Shown here piece after piece: positions 4,486-55,848 of a DNA stretch of 64,000 nucleotides. Source of the DNA: a bacterium (GTDB taxonomy: Bacteria > Zhuqueibacterota > Zhuqueibacteria > Oceanimicrobiales > Oceanimicrobiaceae). The stretch is from contig JBHHXT010000005.1 of the NCBI GenBank assembly GCA_046757165.1, forward strand, positions 1,396 through 65,395, given 5' to 3'. The stretch's first letter is position 1; the number at the start of each line of letters is the position of its first letter. The notes below the pieces were generated by a model. The model had not been told where the DNA came from and did no database searches. It saw only the letters and a list, made by a program, of their open reading frames with translations. A program made the translations under genes and the position numbers.

Positions 4486-5142
4486 ACCAAAAGCCTCCTT
4501 TTGTTCGGTTTGTAGGATACAGATGACGCTGTTATCTATTTTACACCGACAGCTTTTTCTTGACTTTTCGACGGGTTCACGAATTCAGAATTAGGGTGTT
4601 CACGTTTTAGCGTGTTGTCCCCTCGCCCAGCAAGCTGAAGTTTGTGAACCGAACACGCCCTTTCAGGAATCGCTCAATTCAGAAAGAAACTCTTTTGGGT
4701 TCCGGCTCCTCGGCTCAGGAAGCAGAGACAAGCTTCTGAGGTCACTTGCTCTCAACTATAACTGACATTTTGCCCGAATAATTCCTGAGCCGGACAAGCC
4801 CCGCAGAAAGCGCGAGGGACTCACTCTATCAAGCGAAAAGATCCTTTTTTTCTGAATGAGTGCAATTTCGAAAACAACTGGGCTGGAATCAATCGAGTCC
4901 ACCGTAGGAGCATTGACATGTGTTGGCGCATACATATCCACAACGTCGCCTGCACAGAACCAGTAACGAATCTCGGCTTAAGCTCCATTTAACCGGTCCG
5001 AGTCGAAATGAAAGTTAGGCGTCTGGTTATTTTGTGGGGATCGAACCTACCAACATCCCGCAGACAAAAAACGAAAATACGCCTACCAATATTTTATGGT
5101 TCAGTTGTATAGCTCGGACAACGTCACAACACCAATTCCACG

Positions 5143-5338
5143 CTGCGCGGGGTTCGGTTGGTGGAATCGAATGGCCGCCACCAGCGTAGTTGCACGCACT
5201 GCTATAAACCCAGTTTTCCGGCATTTCGACAAAGCCTTCCCTGAGCGGGTCGTGGTGCAGGTAAACGCTGTCTGGCCATATCGAGTCCTGTCAAAAAGGT
5301 CTGACGCCTGGGGACTCATCTGTCCGGTTTGGGGGATG
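5143..5338. repeat. Direct repeat R0 copy 1 (about 196 bp), near-identical to 6454-6657
   Basis: Aligned by eye against copy 2: 1 SNP and 1 single-base indel over about 196 bp. Begins CTGCGCGGGGTTCGGTTGGTGGAATCGAATGGCCGCCACCA. Flanks differ on both sides. Confidence 0.9.
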
Positions 5339-6453: not shown

Positions 6454-6657
6454 CCCTCGAACTGCGCGGGGTTCGGTTGGTGGAATCGAATGGCCGCCAC
6501 CAGCGTAGTTGCACGCACTGCTATAAACCCAGTTTTCCGGCATTTCGACAAAGCCTTCCCTGAGCGGGTCGTGGTGCAGGTAAACGCTGTCTGGCCATAT
6601 CGAGTCCTGTCAAAAAGGTCTGACGCCTGGGGACTCATCTGTCCCGTTTGGGGGGAT
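6454..6657. repeat. Direct repeat R0 copy 2
   Basis: Same sequence as 5143-5338. Similarity ends at GGGGGATG on the right. Confidence 0.9.
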
Positions 6658-17734: not shown

Positions 17735-18763
17735 CTACATTCCCGACTTCGGCTCTGGCACAGTTTCCAAAAGGCGCCGGATAATATCCTCAGAAGTCAC
17801 TTTCTCAGATTCAGCGAAAAAGTTGGTCAAGATTCGGTGGCGCAAAACCGGCAGCGCCAGCTCTTTGATGTCGCGAATAGAAACGTTGTACCGACCTTCT
17901 ATGATAGCCCGAGCTTTGCCGCCAAGGATCAGGTACTGTGAAGCGCGCAAGCCGGCGCCCCAGCTCACCCAATTCTTGACAAAGTCTGGCGCGTTGCGGT
18001 TGCCAGGCCGGCTGGCGGCCACCAGACGAACAGCATACTGCGCCACTTGCACAGACAGCGGGACCTTTCTGACAACTTTCTGAAATTCAATCACCTCTGT
18101 GCCGGTGATGACGCGTTGCAGGTCGGGCACGTAATTCGAGGTGGTCGAGGTCACCACTCTTACCTCATCGTCCTCGTCGAGATAGTCGAGCACGATGTTG
18201 AACATGAAGCGGTCCAACTGCGCCTCGGGCAGCGGATAGGTGCCCTCGAGCTCGATCGGGTTCTGCGTCGCCAGAACAAAAAACGGCTCTTCGAGCTCAT
18301 ACGTGTTGCCGCCGGCGGTGACGCTGTGCTCCTGCATGGCCTCCAGCAGAGCGGCTTGCGTCTTCGGCGGCGTGCGGTTGATTTCATCGGCAAGAATAAT
18401 GTTGGCGAACACAGGCCCCTTCACGAACTTCAGCGTGCGCCGGCCTGTGGTGCGATCCTCTTCGATGACGTCCGTGCCGATGATGTCAGACGGCATCAAA
18501 TCCGGCGTAAATTGAATCCGTTTGAATTTCAAATCCAGTATCTGAGCGATGGTGCGAATCAGGAGCGTTTTCGCCAGTCCCGGCACACCGGTCAACAAGC
18601 AGTGTCCGCCGGTGACCAACGCCAACATAACTTGACCGATGGCGCGATCTTGCCCGACAATGATTTTTCTGAGCTCTTTGTAGATCTTCCGGCTGCCATC
18701 CCGCAACTTTTCAATATACGCCAGGTCTTCCGGCTGCTCACCTCGTGTGGTGCTTTCTAACAT
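17735..18763 (-). CDS. moxR: MoxR-family AAA+ ATPase
   Basis: Walker A GHCLLTGVPGLAKT, then LADEINRTPPKTQAALLEAMQE (Walker B / sensor region of MoxR). Confidence 0.9.
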   Translation of the reverse strand: MLESTTRGEQPEDLAYIEKLRDGSRKIYKELRKIIVGQDRAIGQVMLALVTGGHCLLTGVPGLAKTLLIRTIAQILDLKFKRIQFTPDLMPSDIIGTDVIEEDRTTGRRTLKFVKGPVFANIILADEINRTPPKTQAALLEAMQEHSVTAGGNTYELEEPFFVLATQNPIELEGTYPLPEAQLDRFMFNIVLDYLDEDDEVRVVTSTTSNYVPDLQRVITGTEVIEFQKVVRKVPLSVQVAQYAVRLVAASRPGNRNAPDFVKNWVSWGAGLRASQYLILGGKARAIIEGRYNVSIRDIKELALPVLRHRILTNFFAESEKVTSEDIIRRLLETVPEPKSGM

Positions 18764-18785: not shown

Positions 18786-18972
18786 AAGTATTGTCGGTAA
18801 TTTCTTTGGATCACTCGTTTGCTGAAAAAACCGTCATTTGAGCTTCGCTCGTCATTTGTTGTCATTTGCCTTGCGGGCGTCATTGAGCAAGCAAGGACCA
18901 AATGACGCCCGCAAGGCAAATGACGGCGCGAAGCGCTAAATGACTTTTTTCGCAGCGAAGTCTGCGAAAAAA
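18786..18972. repeat. MITE-like palindromic dispersed repeat family R1, copy A (about 188 bp)
   Basis: Near-identical to 55099-55287. Internal perfect hairpin TTGCCTTGCGGGCGTCATT...AATGACGCCCGCAAGGCAA and terminal hairpin TTTCGCAGCGAAGTCTGCGAAAAAAA. Lies 22 nt upstream of the moxR start. Confidence 0.85.
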
Positions 18973-18981
18973 AATCGCCGC

Positions 18982-19764
18982 CTAATGCGTCAACGCATAA
19001 ATCACAAAATTGATCCCTAACTTGTACGCCTCCGCCGCATAGTGCGCCGGGTAGCGCGGGTCCCCGGTGTGCTCCCAGGCGTCGCCAATGTCCATGTTGC
19101 GAATGACCAGGACCATCAAGCGGTCGTTGTCGTCGAAGATTCCCATGCATCTCTGGTGGATGCCTCCCTTTTCATGCGTGCGGCCGTTCAAAACCGACCC
19201 AAGGCCGGGAATTTGTATCAGCTCATCAAAGTCATAGAAACAGTGGAAAATCGGATGGTCGAGCGCAATGTCGACGATATGACGGTCCGGAAAAACCATC
19301 CGCATTTGCTCAACGAAATTCTGCCATTCGAACGGGCCGTGGAAATCATCGACCATCAGAAACCCGCCACGCAGGAGCCACTCTGCAAGGGTGTCGGCTT
19401 CGGTCTGCGAGAGGGACATATATCCGACTTCCACCATGTAGGCGAAGGGATACTGAAAGAAATCCGTATCGAGCAAAGTCAAAGAGACCGCTTTTTCAGC
19501 CACATTGAGAGCGGTCCAGTTGCGCAACCCCTTCATGAAGTTCTCCTCGGCGGTAGGATAGTCGACAGTCCAGCTCTGCCAGCGTGGCCCAAAGTAGTTG
19601 CGAATCCGAAAGTTGACCCCGCCCGAGGTATACTCGACGCGCACAAAGGTAAATTCATCGCCGTGACTTCCCTGTGCCCTCGCCTGCTGTTGTAACATCG
19701 AGATAATCAAAGCAAGCAGCAAGAAAAAAATCGTGTGATACCGTCCGGGTTTCATAGCTGTCAA
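18982..19764 (-). CDS. DUF4159 domain protein (secreted), paralog 1
   Basis: GGFLMVDDFHGPFEWQNF...HPIFHCFYDFDEL...NMDIGDAWEH...KLGINFVIYALTH matches DUF4159. Confidence 0.75.
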   Translation of the reverse strand: MTAMKPGRYHTIFFLLLALIISMLQQQARAQGSHGDEFTFVRVEYTSGGVNFRIRNYFGPRWQSWTVDYPTAEENFMKGLRNWTALNVAEKAVSLTLLDTDFFQYPFAYMVEVGYMSLSQTEADTLAEWLLRGGFLMVDDFHGPFEWQNFVEQMRMVFPDRHIVDIALDHPIFHCFYDFDELIQIPGLGSVLNGRTHEKGGIHQRCMGIFDDNDRLMVLVIRNMDIGDAWEHTGDPRYPAHYAAEAYKLGINFVIYALTH

Positions 19765-24548: not shown

Positions 24549-25312
24549 TCAGCCCTGGTTGCGCATCTTCAATTTCACAATCTCCTCTTCCGAAAGGCCC
24601 GTAAGGTCTGCAATAACAGAGATTTCCATGCCTCTGGCAAGCATGTTTTGGGCAACGTCACGAATCCCTTCTCTTTTGCCCTCATCTTTCCATCCTTTTC
24701 GTTCTCTCTCAATGGCGGCTTCTAACATAGATCTCACCTCCTCTTTTGATTTGTAGATTCTTTCAAGAGCCTCATAATCAATATCGTCCCTTCGACCGGA
24801 ATGGGCCAATTGCTTGAACCAGTTCAAAAAAAGTGAAACGGCTTGCTTGTCTTCTTGATTCTCAAATAGCCTTATCAACTCTTCCTTTAACAAACCGGTT
24901 TCGTAGAAAGATTCAGCCAAAAACAAGGACGATACAATATTTCTGATTTTGAGCAACTCATCTTTGTCATATTCATTGATAGCTATCTTGAAATATCTAA
25001 AGTTCAGAGCAAAATCACCCAACAGCTTCGGCTCGTCGAGCAACTCCAGGGTGGTAGCATGAGAATACAGATATATGAGTCCTTACCTCTCACTTGCACT
25101 TTGTAGATAACGTCGCTTTCTGTCTTCTTGTAATCCTTGTCTATGAACGATTTCTGCAGCCGTTCGCAGGTATCGAAATCTAAGTCGCCGACCCACGCCT
25201 CGTTGACAAAGCTTTGAATCAGTTGCTGAAAGATGACCTTGTTTGAGAATAGGCGTCCGTATCCTCTGTCGTAGATCTCCCGCATGTCTAAATTAATGAT
25301 ATTTTGGGTCAA
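24549..25312 (-). pseudogene. Rpn/YhgA-like PD-(D/E)XK recombination-promoting nuclease (transposase_31 family), disrupted by a frameshift
   Basis: Two adjacent ORFs (102 aa then 164 aa) in different frames. The upstream piece has ...FSNKVIFQQL...SDVIYKVQVRGKDSYICI. The downstream piece, read upstream of its TTG start, gives YSHATTLELLDEPK...FRYFKIAI and the C-terminal ...ISVIADLTGLSEEEIVKL typical of Rpn proteins. Confidence 0.5.
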
Positions 25313-27792: not shown

Positions 27793-27990
27793 GAGTCTGG
27801 AGTGAAATGCTTTAGCATTTCATGCAACAGCGTTATCCCAAAAGTCAAAAGCAAGCCATGATTTGTCATTCCTGCGAAAGCAGGTATCCCTAAAAATCAA
27901 TGGGTTATAGATGCCCGCTTTCGCGGGAATAACAAGAAGAGCAGACCTTGTGGTCAGCCCCGTGCAACGCTGAAGCGTTGCACTCCGCCC
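27793..27990. repeat. MITE-like repeat family R2, disrupted copy (core interrupted by about 130-bp hairpin-rich insertion)
   Basis: GGAGTGAAATGCTTTAGCATTTCATGCAAC ... insertion ... GTGCAACGCTGAAGCGTTGCACTCC. Compare the intact core at 30541-30587. Confidence 0.7.
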
Positions 27991-30331: not shown

Positions 30332-30486
30332 TTGGTTGATCAGAGGTTAAACATTAATCGTTATATCGCAATATAACGATAGTTGTTTCAAAACGCAAGT
30401 TTTTTTCTGCTAAAGAGATGTGGGAGAGTAAACTGTAAAAAAGATCCAGAAATGATCCAACACGGCCTGTGACCGTGTTTTTTTGA

Positions 30487-30660
30487 CTAGCCTGGATAAT
30501 TCATGAATTTCGCCCAACAAGGGGCAACAGGTAAGGAGTGAAATGCTTTAGCATTTCATGCAACGCTAAAGCGTTGCACTCCTCTTTGTCCCGTTAAGTT
30601 AGCCATAATCAAGCGCTTATATGAATACTTGCTAATCTCTTGTGAATAATCCAGACTAGG
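30487..30660. repeat. MITE-like repeat family R2, intact copy with terminal inverted repeats
   Basis: TIRs CTAGCCTGGATAATTCA ... TGAATAATCCAGACTAG. Core GGAGTG-[AAATGCTTTAGCATTT]-CA-[TGCAACGCTAAAGCGTTGCA]-CTCC can be drawn as a three-way junction. Confidence 0.8.
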
Positions 30661-42216: not shown

Positions 42217-42613
42217 GGTTCGATGGAGGCAACTCCTTCAGTTTTGTATTTAGTTCAGACTCGTTCACAGTCTGGACCAGCCGTGGGTCAACATGGCTAG
42301 CCGCCTTGGCCAGGTCAGAATTTCGAAGCAACATTCCCCTCACCATCTCCACGATCTCTGAACCGAAATCACAAGAAGACGCGCAGAACCAGCTCAGGCC
42401 AAACCCACCTCTGAAAACGAACAAGTTCGTTTTCGGTCTCCTCCCCGGAGGAGATTTACCCCGCTCCCCTCCCGGGAGAGGACAGGTTCAGACAGGTTCA
42501 GAGTCTGAACCAGGAGTGGGTCAACATGGCCAGGCTTTCTGATTGGTTTTGCTTTACCACGCTAATTGTATAGTAATCATTTCTAGTCAAAAAAACAAGC
42601 TCCGAGCCTCAGG

Positions 42614-47162: not shown

Positions 47163-47196
47163 CGATCCAACACGGTCTCTGACCGTGTTTTTTTTA
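47163..47196 (+). terminator. Rho-independent terminator-like hairpin + T-run (repeat family R5; second copy 30459-30488)
   Basis: GATCCAACACGGTCTCTGACCGTGTTTTTTTT follows the Zn-finger gene. A near-identical 31-nt copy at 30459 directly abuts the R2 MITE. Confidence 0.6.
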
Positions 47197-47262
47197 CGAA
47201 CGTGGGAGTGTCCAAAAAGTCCTGGCATGTCATTGCGAACTTTTTGGACAGCCCCACGGATC
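47195..47262. repeat. R3 family short copy
   Basis: GTGTCCAAAAAGTCCTGGCATGTCATTGCGAACTTTTTGGACAGCCCC. Confidence 0.65.
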
Positions 47263-48228: not shown

Positions 48229-48336
48229 GTGCTCCTCCTTATTTTGTTAAACGTAGGGTCAAAAGTTTGTTTGACGGTGCACGACTCTGTTCTGCTGTCT
48301 TCGCTTGCATCCCGGCCTCAAGAGACACGGCTTTAG

Positions 48337-48455
48337 CATTTCATGCAACGCTAAAGCGTTGCACTCCTCTTTATCTCTTTAAGATATGCATAATCAAACA
48401 CTTATACGAATACTTGCTAATCTCTTGTGAATAATCCAGGCTAGTTTGTCTGTCG
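48337..48455. repeat. R2 family partial copy (lacks left TIR); its terminal CTAG supplies the stop codon of the adjacent VKOR gene
   Basis: GCTTTAGCATTTCATGCAACGCTAAAGCGTTGCACTCC ... GTGAATAATCCAGGCTAG. The minus-strand TAG stop of 48441-49748 is the CTA of CTAG. Confidence 0.75.
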
Positions 48456-49748: not shown

Positions 49749-50357
49749 TTTGAAATCGTATATGAGAAGTTAGACTGGATTATTCCTAGCGCGGCAAAGC
49801 CGCAATAAAATTATGAACCGCAAAGACGCAAAACTCGCAAAGGTTCCAATCTTAAGAGACGGGCTCTAACGATCAGTCAATAATCTATCGTATTTTGACC
49901 TTTGCGTTCATTGCGTCTTTGCGGTTTAGTTTTCTTGCAAGAAAATGCAAAAGTTCGGCGGTAATACTCTAATGCAGCAACGTTGCAAATGAATGGAACG
50001 CTGGATTTAACGGATTTGCACGGAACTGAATTTGGTCCGATCCGTGTTCCATCTTTTGCACTTTTAGACGGAGAACACGCAGCGTTCAGGTATTTTCAGC
50101 TATTTCCGCCGCCATCTGAAAAACAAACATTACGAAATATACAAGAAAGGATCAAATAAACAACATATTTTCCCGCGTTGTCGTGTGCCTATCTCGATTG
50201 CGTGAGACATAATCAAAAGGCCCCTGAAATCACAGGGGCCCTTTATGGGAGGAGGAAGAGTAATCAGAACATCGAATGAACTGGTCGTTTATGACGCCAA
50301 AATCAGTGCGATGTTTCATCGCCACCGGCTGATGAACGTCCGGCTGCTGGTTGGCTC

Positions 50358-52159: not shown

Positions 52160-53431
52160 CTAAACAATCGCAATCTTCTCAAACCTACTTCCAAGAACAG
52201 CCTCCGCCTCGACACGCAACCAATCTTCCAGCACCGAGGCATAAACGGAACGGAAATCTGTGCCGAACTGCAAATCGCCATCCGAGAGTTTTTCCAGACT
52301 CGGGTGTTGACCGAGGAAACCAGCTCTCACCGGTTTCCCAAAAATGAACATCGGCGCAGCCTGGCCGTGGTCGGTGCCGCGACTGCCGTTTTCTGCCACG
52401 CGCCGCCCGAATTCCGAGAAGACCATTCCCAACACACGCTCCCCCTGCCCCAGGTTCTCCAGATCCTTCTGGAACGCGGCGATGCTGTCGCTCAGCATTT
52501 TGAGCAAACGCTGGTGCACCCCCGCCTGGCTGGCATGGGTATCGAATCCGGAAAGCGAGATATAGTAGACGCGCGTGTCCAGGCCACCCGCAATCATGCC
52601 TGCCATCAGCTTCAAACCCTGCGCAAAGGGGTTTTGTGGATAATCCGTGTGGGTTTGGACCTGACGCACGGAGCGGCGAATCCGGTCTGCACTGAGCTGG
52701 GCGTTCACGGCCGTTCGCCGCAGGAAATCGAGCGCGGTCGTTTCCTGCCTTTCCGGGTCTTTGGGGACCTCCAGCCCGGTCGCATGGGAAGCCGCAAACA
52801 GCCGCGTCATGCGGTAGAGCCGCTCCGGGTTGGCCACCGCCACGCCGACACCGTGCTCTGCCCGGAAGGCAGGATTCAACGTCTGCCCCACGCTGACACC
52901 GAGCGTTGGGCTGCACTCGTTCAAATGCGCATTATCGCACGTGTGGTCGAACAGGCGCCCGATCCAACCCGTGGTCTCAAACCCATCCACCACACCGCTT
53001 TGCCAGATCTCCATGGAACGAAAATGTGAGCGGTCCGGGTTTGGATATCCCACTCCCTGGATAATCGCCAGCCTGCCAGTTTCATACAATTCCTTGAAAG
53101 CAGACAAACCCGGATGCACGCCCAACTCTCCGTTCAAATCCAGCACCTCCTCCTTCGCAATCGCAAGGGTAGGACGGAGCTGGTAATAGATATCGTTGCG
53201 GTATGGAATGACGGTGTTCAGGCCATCGTTGCCGCCGCCGAGCTGAATCACCACCAATACACGCTCTTCCGGCACGCCAGGCCTGTAGCGAACTTCAGCC
53301 GCATGAGACGGATTCTGAATTGCAAACAGCGAGCGCGCCAGGAAGGTGGGCACCGTTGCGCTGGCTGCGGCCAGAGTCAGCCCCTGTTTCATGAATTCCC
53401 GCCGGGTGACCAGTTTGACTGTCTCGCTCAT
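52160..53431 (-). CDS. DUF1501 family protein with twin-arginine signal
   Basis: TAT motif TRREFMKQGLTLAAASA. Sulfatase-like DUF1501 core. Confidence 0.75.
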   Translation of the reverse strand: MSETVKLVTRREFMKQGLTLAAASATVPTFLARSLFAIQNPSHAAEVRYRPGVPEERVLVVIQLGGGNDGLNTVIPYRNDIYYQLRPTLAIAKEEVLDLNGELGVHPGLSAFKELYETGRLAIIQGVGYPNPDRSHFRSMEIWQSGVVDGFETTGWIGRLFDHTCDNAHLNECSPTLGVSVGQTLNPAFRAEHGVGVAVANPERLYRMTRLFAASHATGLEVPKDPERQETTALDFLRRTAVNAQLSADRIRRSVRQVQTHTDYPQNPFAQGLKLMAGMIAGGLDTRVYYISLSGFDTHASQAGVHQRLLKMLSDSIAAFQKDLENLGQGERVLGMVFSEFGRRVAENGSRGTDHGQAAPMFIFGKPVRAGFLGQHPSLEKLSDGDLQFGTDFRSVYASVLEDWLRVEAEAVLGSRFEKIAIV

Positions 53432-53566: not shown

Positions 53567-55093
53567 TCACACCAACTGATAAGCAGGCAAGGTCATGATG
53601 TCTCCAATCAAGTACCGCAGCGCCTGTCTCTTATTCGTTCGGCTCATGCTGGACTGATAGTTTGCCAGGATCATGGCCCGCTCTTGCGCCGTCATCTCCT
53701 GAGACAGCAAGATTCTTGCCACGCCGCCCAGGGTCTCGTCAGGAGAGCCCTGGGGGCTGGCCAGCGACTCGGGTTCAAAATCAAGTCGCAAGTGCCCCAT
53801 GCGCATCATCTTCCTGGCGGCCTTATCCCTGCGCGGCCTGGAGACCTTCCCCCTTTCCCGCCTGGCGTTCGGCTCTGAGCGCGGATCGATTTCCGCCGGA
53901 ATCTTCCCCTGGGTGACTATTTGAGCAAACGTAAATCGCGTCAACAGGCGGGAGGTATCGATCCAGGTCCGGCCGCCGGGCCAGCCTTTGACATTGGGGG
54001 GAACGTACGGCACCTGCCCCATCATATCGAGGGCGTGCAGGTAAAAGGTCTCGTTATCTGTGCGCAGGTCAAGGGTCCTGGCCGTTCCGACCACGAGCTG
54101 CACCGGGCTCTTTATCTGCGACCCCATGACCTGCGACGTGTAAAAGTCATCATGAGCAAACATCCTGCGGAGCAATGTTTTAATGTCGTAATCGCTGTTG
54201 CGAAACGCGTCCGCCAGGTCCCGCACCACCGTCCCGGAGACCGGCTCAAACCCGAAGTAACCGAGTATTTTTCGCGTCATGAATTCGGCGCAAGCCGGTT
54301 GGTCAAGAATGATGTTCACAACCTCCTGCCCATCGAAGTCGCCGGTCTGGCCGAGAAAGGTTTTCTGGCCAAAGTCGTGCTGGGCCGTGCGGAATTTGAA
54401 ATTGAACCGGTCATTTGACCAGCCGGTGAAGGCCCGCGCCGCCTCTTTGACATCCTGCTCGTTGTAGTGACCCGGGCCGAGCGAAAAAAGCTCCACCAGC
54501 TCGCGCGCAAAATTCTCGTTTGGCTTGCCTTTGCGGTTTTGATTGTTGTCGAGATAGCGCAGCATGGCCGGGTCCCGGGTGATGCTCAGCAGCAAATCAC
54601 GAAAACTGCCGGTAGCGTGCTCATGAAACAGGTGCAGTTGCTTGAACACAAACAGCGGATGCTTGACCTTCTGCACGCTGGTCGCAAAATGACCGTGCCA
54701 GAAAAAGGTCATTTTCTCGGCCAGCATCTCCGCCGGCGTCCGGGTCGCAATCATGCGATTGACCCACGCGAGTTGGAGTTCACGCATGCGCTTTCGGTTG
54801 CGGCGCTGCAGCTTTTTCCGTTCTGCTTGTGACATCGAGCGGAATTTTTGCGCCGAAAAATTTTCATCTTCCGCCAGCCAATCCGGCATCTCCTGTGGCT
54901 GGTTTTGCAGCTCGAACAGCGCCTCGACACTCCCGTCCCGGCCAACCTTTTCGAAGGCGGCAATTTCGGAGGGTTTGCCGCCAAAGCCGGCGCGGTTTAG
55001 AAGATGTCTGGCCGTCGCCCAGTTCCATTTATCTGCGGTCAATGGCTTCGTCCTCAAACTCTCTTGGTTTACACTGCAAGAGAATAATAGCAT
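53567..55093 (-). CDS. DUF1800 family protein (partner of DUF1501)
   Basis: FWHGHFATS ... NENFARELVELFSLGPGHYNEQDVKEAARAFTGW are signature DUF1800 motifs. Start chosen at MLLFSC so as not to run into the R1 repeat. Confidence 0.7.
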   Translation of the reverse strand: MLLFSCSVNQESLRTKPLTADKWNWATARHLLNRAGFGGKPSEIAAFEKVGRDGSVEALFELQNQPQEMPDWLAEDENFSAQKFRSMSQAERKKLQRRNRKRMRELQLAWVNRMIATRTPAEMLAEKMTFFWHGHFATSVQKVKHPLFVFKQLHLFHEHATGSFRDLLLSITRDPAMLRYLDNNQNRKGKPNENFARELVELFSLGPGHYNEQDVKEAARAFTGWSNDRFNFKFRTAQHDFGQKTFLGQTGDFDGQEVVNIILDQPACAEFMTRKILGYFGFEPVSGTVVRDLADAFRNSDYDIKTLLRRMFAHDDFYTSQVMGSQIKSPVQLVVGTARTLDLRTDNETFYLHALDMMGQVPYVPPNVKGWPGGRTWIDTSRLLTRFTFAQIVTQGKIPAEIDPRSEPNARRERGKVSRPRRDKAARKMMRMGHLRLDFEPESLASPQGSPDETLGGVARILLSQEMTAQERAMILANYQSSMSRTNKRQALRYLIGDIMTLPAYQLV

Positions 55094-55098
55094 CGACA

Positions 55099-55287
55099 AA
55101 GTATTGTCGATAATTTTTTGGGTCAACCGTTTGCTGAAAAAACGGCCATTTTGAGCTTCGCTCGTCATTTGCTGTCATTTGCCCTGCGGGCGTCATTGAG
55201 CAAGCAAGGACCGAATGACGCCGTTGGCAAGTGACGGCGCGAAGCGCTAGATGACTTCTTTCGCAGCGAAGTCTGCGAAAAAAATTA
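55099..55287. repeat. MITE-like repeat family R1, copy B
   Basis: About 90% identical by eye to 18786-18972 in the same orientation. Lies only a few nt upstream of the start chosen for the DUF1800 gene. Confidence 0.85.
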
Positions 55288-55848
55288 GATCTCTTTGAAT
55301 TGCGGCTTGCTTTCTCCAAACTCGAAATCAAAATCATCCAGACCCAGCTCATCATCTGCGCCGGGCAGGTCATCCAGCGGCGTTCCCGGCCGGAATCTAT
55401 CACCTCGATGAAACCGCTTTCGGCCAGGCCAGCTTTCAAGCTCTCTCAACTTCTGACGTTGCGTCTCGGTCAGCAGCTTGTTGATGGCCAGCCGTGTGAG
55501 CACTTGCTTCAAGCGTATGTCCGTCATGAACTGGCCTATTTCTTTGACTTTGGAAGTGACTTCGCCTTCGGTCACATCGGTGGCCTGCATCAGCTCTCGT
55601 AATTCCAGCTCAGCAATCTTTCGGCTGGCTTGCTTTTGGATCGTTTCTATTTCTGCGGACAATCGCAGCTTCCTTATCTTCCCTAACTGCTCTTCCGACA
55701 AATCCAGCTCCTGCGCAAACTGCTCAATTCTGAAGCTGACCTGCCGGCGGAGTTTGAACGGCTGTTGGGCAACCGCATCTGAGCCCAAACCCAGAGAGAA
55801 TGATATGACCATTATCAATGCCAGGAGACTTTTTCTGGTCTTCATCAT
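55285..55848 (-). CDS. Periplasmic Spy/CpxP-family (LTXXQ motif) protein
   Basis: Signal peptide MMKTRKSLLALIMVISFSLG. LTETQRQKL fits the LTxxQ motif. Helical. Confidence 0.6.
   Translation of the reverse strand: MMKTRKSLLALIMVISFSLGLGSDAVAQQPFKLRRQVSFRIEQFAQELDLSEEQLGKIRKLRLSAEIETIQKQASRKIAELELRELMQATDVTEGEVTSKVKEIGQFMTDIRLKQVLTRLAINKLLTETQRQKLRELESWPGRKRFHRGDRFRPGTPLDDLPGADDELGLDDFDFEFGESKPQFKEI

Follow-up and report, generated by a model that had tools for sequence, protein, structure and literature searches.

What is the short repeat that lies upstream of two unrelated operons in a bacterium of the Zhuqueibacterota (GenBank assembly GCA_046757165.1, contig JBHHXT010000005.1, positions 1,396 to 65,395), and does it control the genes beside it? 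The repeat, called R1, occurs twice in the window, which is the whole 64,000-nt stretch that was analyzed and to which all window coordinates refer. The two copies are designated A and B, and the gene strand is the minus strand. An earlier note had described R1 as similar to a MITE (a miniature transposable element of the inverted-repeat type) that might rewire the expression of adjacent operons. Our analysis leans toward a different answer, in which R1 is a non-autonomous, partly decayed member of a family of hairpin-ended elements of ~1.8 kb that has inserted into operon spacers. R1 is tied to this family because its head is identical to the 5′ end of the larger elements, the stem of the head covaries, the motif in its tail is specific to element ends, and analogues that lack an open reading frame (ORF) exist.

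R1 is a genuine repeat. Copy A (18786-18974) and copy B (55099-55284) are ~90% identical across ~188 nt with few indels. Diagnostic 22- and 26-mers from R1 are present solely at A and B in the window, and shuffled windows gave zero matches. The element is 189 to 193 nt long and has no gene inside; a single accidental open frame crosses it. The two copies are 36 kb apart, their boundaries are sharp, and their flanks are unrelated. Each copy occupies the spacer between two co-directional minus-strand genes. The earlier note correctly described the flanking gene sets as unrelated and the two copies as sharing one orientation relative to the minus-strand genes; the sets are DUF4159-DUF4159-MoxR-DUF58-BatA at A and DUF1800-DUF1501 at B. 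The full extents of the copies are as follows.

18786..18974, minus strand: R1 copy A, whole element; ~90% identical to B and missing at the orthologous junction in the relative L052/L053 (fetched loci carry L numbers).

55092..55284, minus strand: R1 copy B, whole element; the homology to A spans 55099-55284, and the complete tail hairpin extends to 55092.

Read along the gene strand, R1 consists of a head hairpin, a long hairpin of ~110 nt, a GG/CC step followed by U6, and a tail of ~40 nt that ends in ...CGACAAUACUUU. These parts map to the two copies as listed here; the palindromes and the tail hairpin of copy B are given unstranded.

18945..18974, minus strand: head hairpin of copy A, composed of a T-run, CGCAG, an ACTTCG loop, CTGCG and an A-run; it shares 28 identical nt with the 5′ end of the ~1.8-kb elements from soil.

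55256..55284, minus strand: head hairpin of copy B, with one A-to-G change, after which a G-U pair is retained solely in the gene-strand RNA; the hairpin adjoins the TAA at 55285-55287.

18833..18944, unstranded: long palindrome of copy A, an inverted doublet of modules made of GTCATT plus a GC mini-hairpin, with A6 (18825-18830) and T6 (18945-18950) on either side.

55145..55255, unstranded: long palindrome of copy B; its right arm has substitutions and a 2-nt deletion, and the stem is broken with no compensating changes.

18786..18824, minus strand: tail of copy A, non-palindromic; the gene strand ends in ...TTACCGACAATACTTT, and only the first arm of the tail hairpin is present.

55092..55111, unstranded: tail hairpin of copy B, complete, ATCGACAA-AGTA-TTGTCGAT.

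The perfect stem in copy A is 24 bp rather than the 19 bp given in the earlier note. It pairs 18861-18884 with 18901-18924 around a loop of 16 nt and lies within arms of ~55 nt. Each arm of the palindrome interleaves GTCATT(T) hexamers with short GC palindromes (GCGCTTCGCGC, GCCTTGCGGGC), and on the AATGAC strand the GC palindromes of R1 are C-GNA-G triloop hairpins. Folding compared with shuffled sequence gave z = -7.5 and -6.5 for the two strands as RNA, and -8.5 as DNA. The core motifs of integron attC sites (RYYYAAC / GTTRRRY) are absent on both strands of A and B, and identity with attC was rejected.

Folding this strong (z about -7) could mean that R1 encodes an RNA, either cis-acting or small, that functions through its fold. 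The single change in the head stem of copy B preserves a G-U pair on the gene strand only, and the one variant seen in the short-read contig L047 falls in a loop, both of which fit an RNA. However, the two strands fold equally well because R1 is a palindrome in DNA, the main stem of copy B breaks down without compensation, and R1 is missing from close relatives at the same junction. The Rfam 15 search at gathering score returned no match at R1. The best hit of the E-value search was a plant miRNA model at 22 bits versus a cut-off of 50; such sub-threshold matches are noise. A functional RNA is the least credible explanation that we considered, and we regard it as highly improbable.

The head of R1 has close relatives in soil metagenomes. 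About 14 soil contigs contain 26-29 nt identical to the R1 head, followed by a GC mini-hairpin as in R1, and this block is located 50-110 nt upstream of an ORF of ~550 aa. Soil copies that are 98-99.9% identical to one another have flanks that differ past CTACGC on one side and past ..GCCTA(A)G on the other. Near-identical copies with differing flanks therefore delimit a mobile unit of ~1.8 kb, which was located as follows.

L029-L046 (e.g. L041:2276-4075), L061 (NZ_OY970457.1 143332-144993) and L062: ~1.8-kb element.

The ~550-aa ORF had no match in Pfam, NCBIfam, PHROGs, PADLOC or PDB sequences. A tblastn search located it on 15 plasmids, where the matched stretches are mostly annotated as "hypothetical protein" (RefSeq) or are unannotated. 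The plasmid hosts are Mycobacterium riyadhense (52% identity), Rhodococcus, Burkholderia, Paraburkholderia and Caballeronia, and the M. riyadhense plasmid NZ_OY970457.1 has matches at five places. The ORF is often found directly downstream of a paralogue with ~24-27% identity. The family is unannotated and multicopy, and it may represent a transposase type that is missing from family libraries.

The plasmid copies show that the head hairpin covaries. In the copies from M. riyadhense and R. jostii (pRHL3), the 10-bp head stem is built from other bases with the pairing retained. Across the stem 97.3% of cells are paired, both sides have changed in 8 of the 10 pairs, and none of 500 shuffles was as good. 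CTACGC and the GC mini-hairpin are conserved in both plasmid copies; the ACTTCG loop is kept in M. riyadhense only, and the R. jostii loop is TCTGCG. A plasmid scan with an AT-stem variant of the head gave no match.

The tail of R1 points to the same family. The 3′ end of the soil element carries a CGACAA..TTGTCG hairpin. The pattern CGACAA-N(2-8)-TTGTCG occurs once in the window, at the tail of copy B, versus 0.03 occurrences expected. Among the 62 fetched loci (~0.46 Mb) it was confined to the 3′ end of the L044 element, the tail of one ORF-less L045 unit and the copies of site B. The soil contig L045 contains two ORF-less units of ~190 nt, each composed of a head hairpin, a mini-hairpin, a long palindrome and a tail, and L032 is similar, with a head and a palindrome that has 24-bp arms. 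R1 has the three-part layout of the L045 units but a different palindrome in the middle. The head-to-tail direction of R1 corresponds to the direction of the ORF in the larger relatives, and it matches host transcription in both copies.

Copy A is an insertion. The genes on either side of it are listed first.

18982..19764, minus strand: DUF4159 gene, upstream of copy A; its TAG stop (18982-18984) is 7 nt from R1.

17735..18763, minus strand: moxR (AAA_3), downstream of copy A; between the element and the ATG, native sequence supplies a GGAG ribosome-binding site.

The moxR gene is the first gene of a DUF58/BatA-type operon. By its DUF4159 protein, the organism groups with metagenome-assembled genomes that resemble candidate division KSB1. 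The evidence for insertion is an 81%-identical relative (L052/L053; GCA_029262055.1) with a clean stop-to-start junction, in which the distance from the DUF4159 stop to the moxR start is 9-24 nt versus 218 nt in the window. The sequence ATTAG (CTAAT on the plus strand) is found near both boundaries of copy A and is a possible 5-bp target duplication. Excising the insert together with one ATTAG leaves the stop codon, 15 nt and the ATG, with the native GGAG site intact. In a closer relative (88%; L048), the DUF4159-moxR junction has an unrelated 193-nt spacer that holds a different repeated element of 118 nt. L048 carries a different insert at this position; the junction therefore tolerates small insertions, and has done so repeatedly. 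The 118-nt repeat is located at L048:10797-10912 and, 8 kb away and in the opposite orientation relative to genes, at L048:2468-2583. It also has a weak 73% match at 4593-4682 in the window.

The comparison at site B is less informative. The nearest relative there is only 57% identical and lacks both R1 and the small upstream gene, so it says little. In Logan short-read assemblies of this organism (SRR29324606 and SRR29324597), contigs break inside R1 at both sites, which fits a repeat but gives no copy count. The sequence of copy B is identical in two independent short-read assemblies whose contigs break within the palindrome, and no population polymorphism was detected at site B in the Logan contigs, in which R1 is present and identical. 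The portion of copy A covered by L047 has a single variant, in the loop.

A number of observations weigh against placing R1 in the ~1.8-kb family. The soil contigs were found with a 20-mer from the R1 head itself, and independent evidence comes only from how far the match extends, from the common layout and from the covariation. R1 is missing the outer CTACGC and ..GCCTAAG termini of the soil elements, and its tail similarity covers only ~8 nt and their complement, with the second arm absent from copy A. There are no terminal inverted repeats: the first 30 nt compared with the reverse complement of the last 30 gave 13/30 matches in copy A and 9/30 in copy B, no better than shuffled ends. Copy B has no target duplication, so none is consistent across R1. 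The ~550-aa protein is considered a putative transposase from its copy number and varying flanks, and no homologue of it was found in the window or in the fetched KSB1 loci, which leaves the lineage with no autonomous partner in that set. R1 itself is visible in two copies only, both within the 64-kb window. A metagenome scan with the 20-mer of the loop gave no further R1. A stem-pattern scan over one genome per species gave module arrays and no R1, with the source genome not among the matches, and the plasmid and phage scans gave no R1. A protein-database search with the one frame open across R1 returned no candidate.

Two further results complete this survey. Viral contigs had no R1 match, and the related soil copies, by reading, have no target duplication. 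The term MITE-like is apt in so far as R1 is a small non-coding insertion with an empty site in a relative and with ends that match an ORF-bearing element. It is not apt in that R1 has no terminal inverted repeats and a 5-bp duplication is possible at A only.

The middle of R1 is related to a second set of sequences. Genomes, one per species, were scanned with an exact pattern from part of the R1 arm, and 26 loci were recovered (L001-L026). None of the 26 is R1; all contain modules of its type, in which GTCATT is joined to a GC mini-hairpin, and these are arranged either in tandem, the periods being 56, 64 or 84 nt, or in inverted arrays. The hosts are metagenome-assembled genomes of Bacteroidales, Prolixibacteraceae, Rikenellaceae, Ignavibacteriaceae, KSB1 and Desulfobacterales. 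One Bacteroidales contig (L022) has a satellite-like array of ~800 bp with an 11-nt period beside inverted modules with a 43-nt period. Examples of the arrays are given on the next line.

L022:6257-7650, L018:1922-2971 and L006:4213-4440: module arrays; the periods across arrays are 11, 43, 56, 64 and 84 nt.

The gene context of 38 module clusters, established with crude ORF calling, is co-directional in 25, convergent in 4 and divergent in 9, with no clear preference. When co-directional genes flank an array, the sense strand seems more often to be the one that reads AATGAC (GNA triloops), ~10 versus 2, although these cases are not independent. The GTCATT arrays could be mistaken for CRISPR arrays. 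Identity with CRISPR was rejected for the periodic 56-84-nt arrays: their "spacers", by reading, are themselves repeated modules.

These arrays bring in the possibility that R1 belongs with the REPINs and bacterial interspersed mosaic elements (BIMEs). R1 would then be essentially a doublet of extragenic palindromic repeats (REP sequences), spread by a REP-associated tyrosine transposase (RAYT) encoded elsewhere, and its head and tail would be further REP-like modules. The center of R1 is an inverted doublet with ~55-nt arms and a 16-nt spacer, each arm composed of GTCATT and short GC palindromes, and it fits the REPIN definition (PMC3116915). The same modules cluster, tandem and inverted, in the intergenic DNA of many genomes, and the Bacteroidales contig in which the arrays are largest also has genes for two Y1_Tnp (IS200/RAYT-like) proteins. 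The Y1_Tnp genes are the following.

L018:1071-1553 and L022:97-543: Y1_Tnp genes with flanking GTAG-type mini-hairpins GCCCGTAGGGC and CCTCGTAGAGG.

Both genes are flanked by these GTAG-type hairpins and not by GTCATT modules, and the window has no Y1 transposase gene. We tried to link a RAYT to the R1 modules without success. A REP doublet would also leave unexplained both the identity of the R1 head with the 5′ end of the ~1.8-kb element and the covariation there. We consider this origin unlikely.

The same arrays bear on whether R1 was ever mobile. Its palindromes might have formed on the spot, when replication switched templates or slipped, and a small patch might have been duplicated through ectopic recombination or gene conversion to give the second copy. 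The arms of copy A are perfectly complementary though both depart from the usual module (GCCTTGCGGGC with GCCCGCAAGGC), which suggests templated homogenization. Related modules make satellite-like arrays, such as the 11-nt period over ~800 bp in L022, and just two copies of R1 are known. A local origin does not fit the sharp boundaries, the unrelated flanks and the 36 kb between the copies. It is also at odds with the match of head and tail to element ends from unrelated organisms and with the relative's empty site, which is a clean stop-to-start junction. We judge a non-mobile origin to be quite improbable, and R1 is read in what follows as an inserted relative of the ~1.8-kb elements.

Some of the arrays are close to a gene type known from ribosomal RNA. 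Genes for a four-helix-bundle "23S rRNA IVS protein" (intervening sequence protein; TIGR02436/PF05635) are found near arrays, outside rRNA, in 4/26 loci.

L019:6774-7500, L016:21-511, L024:1552-2396 and L017:490-1274: four-helix-bundle gene loci.

The L019 gene is located between a GTCATT array and an inverted AATGAC array and so would form the loop of a long hairpin. In L016 and L024 the arrays are on one side of the gene, and in L017 they are ~380 nt away. Gene and array directly adjoin each other in L019, L016 and L024. No PF05635-like ORF was found in the window. Two CRISPR surveys report 23S_rRNA_IVP genes associated with CRISPR-Cas loci, and one of them places these genes inside cas loci, e.g. 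between cmr3 and cmr2. A search of the literature on the module sequence, on STRR repeats and on S23p contexts found no description of GTCATT arrays.

The two sets of relatives can be combined into one tentative proposal with two parts, which is possible but which we do not favor as a whole. R1 would be the first recognized non-autonomous partner of an unclassified transposable-element family that is present in Actinomycetota plasmids, soil bacteria and KSB1. This family would have a covarying 5′ hairpin, a CGACAA..TTGTCG 3′ hairpin and ORF-less derivatives with long palindromes that settle after stop codons in operons. At the same time, the modules of GTCATT and GC mini-hairpins would be a cross-phylum class of IVS-like hairpin DNA able to enclose S23p/Avd-like genes outside rRNA. 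The GTCATT arrays with S23p-type genes would connect the intervening sequences of 23S rRNA to a broader range of hairpin-bounded selfish DNA.

The remaining question is whether R1 acts on the neighboring genes. The genes at site B are as follows.

55285..55845, minus strand: signal-peptide protein gene with LxxxQ repeats, upstream of copy B; its TAA stop (55285-55287) abuts R1.

53567..55042, minus strand: DUF1800 gene, downstream of copy B; TTG start with a GAGGA Shine-Dalgarno sequence.

52160..53431, minus strand: DUF1501 gene, after DUF1800.

A family search with the signal-peptide protein (55285-55845) gave no match. The earlier note had placed R1 immediately upstream of start codons. The distance from the end of copy A to the moxR ATG (18763) is 22 nt, as claimed. 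Copy B was said to end a few nucleotides before the operon start, but the best-supported DUF1800 start (TTG 55042) is 56 nt away, or ~49 nt when the full tail hairpin (55092-55111) is counted. This start agrees with the GAGGA site, a 491-aa database protein and the homologue alignment. The in-frame ATG at 55093, 5 nt from copy B, has no Shine-Dalgarno sequence. The upstream stop codons are equally near the element (7 nt at A and 0 nt at B), so proximity to starts is only half of the description.

Copy B also contributes an in-frame ATG at 55168, by which the DUF1800 open reading frame gains 42 codons and reaches into R1 (55093-55168). This extension is likely to mislead start calling; the 535-residue partial gene called on the Logan contigs L056/L057 is a case. 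R1 could mislead gene callers in this way, the false ATG extension of DUF1800 that begins within the element being an example.

A regulatory MITE would carry a promoter and/or a terminator and would be kept in one orientation upstream of moxR and DUF1800 for rewired expression. The position of R1 is compatible with this idea, with the tail 22-56 nt from the downstream starts, but it equally fits a location just after a stop codon. The orientation is common to both copies, and because head-to-tail corresponds to the ORF direction, an inward-reading promoter would read into the host gene. By chance, however, two copies would share an orientation half of the time (p = 0.5), and the agreement is without statistical weight. 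The downstream genes are intact despite a 190-nt hairpin placed in a formerly tight junction. Relatives do without R1 at site A, and the palindrome of copy B decays without compensating changes.

The terminal stem of R1 is not a terminator, and the long hairpin is an ambiguous candidate for one. The earlier note had proposed that the terminal stem and its A/T run would be a terminator when read in the other direction. The order is T-run, CGCAG, N6, CTGCG, A-run on both strands; A-runs follow the terminal stem on both, and a U-run follows it in neither direction. The long hairpin has A6 and T6 sides on both strands, which is the shape of a bidirectional terminator. Here U6 comes 2 nt after the stem, separated from it by GG, the base of the stem beside U6 is AU-rich (AAAUGAC), the hairpin is unusually long, and the terminator scan calls none.

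The promoter search recommended by the earlier note was likewise largely negative. A consensus scan of the gene strand with 16-18 nt spacing found no promoter-like site in or beside copy A. For copy B it gave only a hybrid site matching 9/12 positions, TCGACA-18-TATTCT, whose -35 belongs to the R1 tail and whose -10 belongs to the flank; shuffled sequence had a mean of 0.1 sites per region. The candidate -35 is not the same in the two copies (GTGATC in A and TTGACC in B). The Bacteroidota-type -33/-7 motif was unmatched by reading the sequence, and KSB1 promoter rules may differ. With a terminal stem that is no terminator, an empty promoter scan at A and an orientation taken from two copies, the suggestion that R1 rewires adjacent operons is unsupported, and we doubt that R1 is a regulatory element.

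The history that we favor for R1 as a decayed relative of the ~1.8-kb elements begins with its mobilization. The ~550-aa protein would once have mobilized R1 by recognizing the end hairpins, and R1 would have landed in short spacers between co-transcribed genes. It would now be transcribed within the operon mRNA. There, its long hairpin, bordered by A6 and U6, could stall transcription or end part of it, shield the upstream message from 3′ exonucleases or be a substrate for RNase III. Any such effects on neighboring genes are probably by-products, and R1 would not be a promoter or terminator switch by design. On this reading, two operon junctions that used to be tight have been parted by a small selfish hairpin element, a modest outcome for this genome.

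Other repeats and small features were recorded in the window. An Rfam match to the whalefall-1 small RNA (42402-42457, minus strand; 43.3 bits versus a gathering score of 37) lies between 85%-identical 48-nt repeats (42253-42300 and 42486-42533), which are also partly inverted. A small repeat family at 27799-27828, 30535-30659 and 48320-48444 consists of the 30-mer GGAGTGAAATGCTTTAGCATTTCATGCAAC followed by the GCAACGCTAAAGCGTTGC hairpin. Two of its copies reach 115 nt at 91% identity, and one end of the Logan contig L047 maps beside the copy at 27799. A 42-nt terminator-like hairpin, CAACACGG(N7)CCGTGTTTTTTT, is present at 30454-30495 and 47164-47205 with 86% identity. Direct repeats of 193 nt each at 5143-5335 and 6462-6654 are 99% identical and 1.3 kb apart. 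A 29-nt inverted repeat at 49816-49926, AACCGCAAAGACGCAAAACTCGCAAAGGT and its complement, is 86% complementary with a 53-nt spacer. Two small ORFs at ~24550-25290 on the minus strand, identified from L047:2599-3335, match Pfam Transposase_31 (weakly) and HTH_Rpn_C, pointing to the Rpn-type family of recombination-promoting nucleases; they may be one split gene.

R1 can be compared with several known systems. Classical bacterial MITEs, such as the Correia elements of Neisseria, ERIC/IRU and RUP, are ~100-250 bp long and have no coding capacity. R1 resembles them in being small, non-coding, located beside or between genes and hairpin-forming, with ends related to a larger ORF-bearing element. 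Classical MITEs are co-transcribed, as R1 probably is, and either could in principle provide pieces of promoters, terminators or sites for RNase III. In contrast to MITEs, the ends of R1 are structured hairpins and not inverted repeats, there is no consistent target-site duplication, and the larger relative, unlike MITE partners, is not a recognized insertion sequence (IS) family.

With the ~1.8-kb element R1 shares the ACTTCG-loop head hairpin plus the GC mini-hairpin, the CGACAA..TTGTCG tail and the same direction. It differs in having no ORF, in lacking the outer CTACGC and ..GCCTA(A)G termini, in having a palindrome of GTCATT modules instead, and in its KSB1 host. The STRR heptanucleotide repeats of cyanobacteria offer a likeness of the middle modules only. 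These repeats, e.g. TTGGTCA, read GGTCATT in tandem, and as in R1 short units of the GTCATT type are repeated in intergenic DNA. In R1 the hexamer is interleaved with GC mini-hairpins in a palindromic layout, and the phylum is different.

REPINs and BIMEs (Bertels & Rainey 2011, PMC3116915) are, like R1, non-coding, intergenic and often near the 3′ ends of genes. They are composed of two inverted short palindromic units with a short spacer that give a long hairpin in single-stranded DNA or RNA. They have neither terminal inverted repeats nor target duplications, and related units occur in tandem clusters elsewhere. R1 differs from REPINs in having no linked RAYT and in its conserved punctuation, which is GTCATT rather than GTAG. 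It also bears additional hairpins at its head and tail; these are asymmetric and correspond to the ends of an ORF-bearing element outside the IS200/RAYT type.

The intervening sequences of 23S rRNA with an S23p gene (PF05635/TIGR02436; PMC4990558) also form a long stem from complementary flanks, as R1 does. The terminal stems of rRNA intervening sequences are cut by RNase III (PMC4990558), and by analogy the R1 stem in RNA would be a substrate for this enzyme. In contrast to these sequences, R1 has protein genes on both sides and an ORF-free loop of 16 nt; the link between them is the shared arm modules only. Small hairpin-forming intergenic insertions are thus already known (MITEs, REPINs, BIMEs, Correia, ERIC). 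R1 is a variant of these that lacks both inverted repeats and target duplication and whose ends lead to an unclassified element family.

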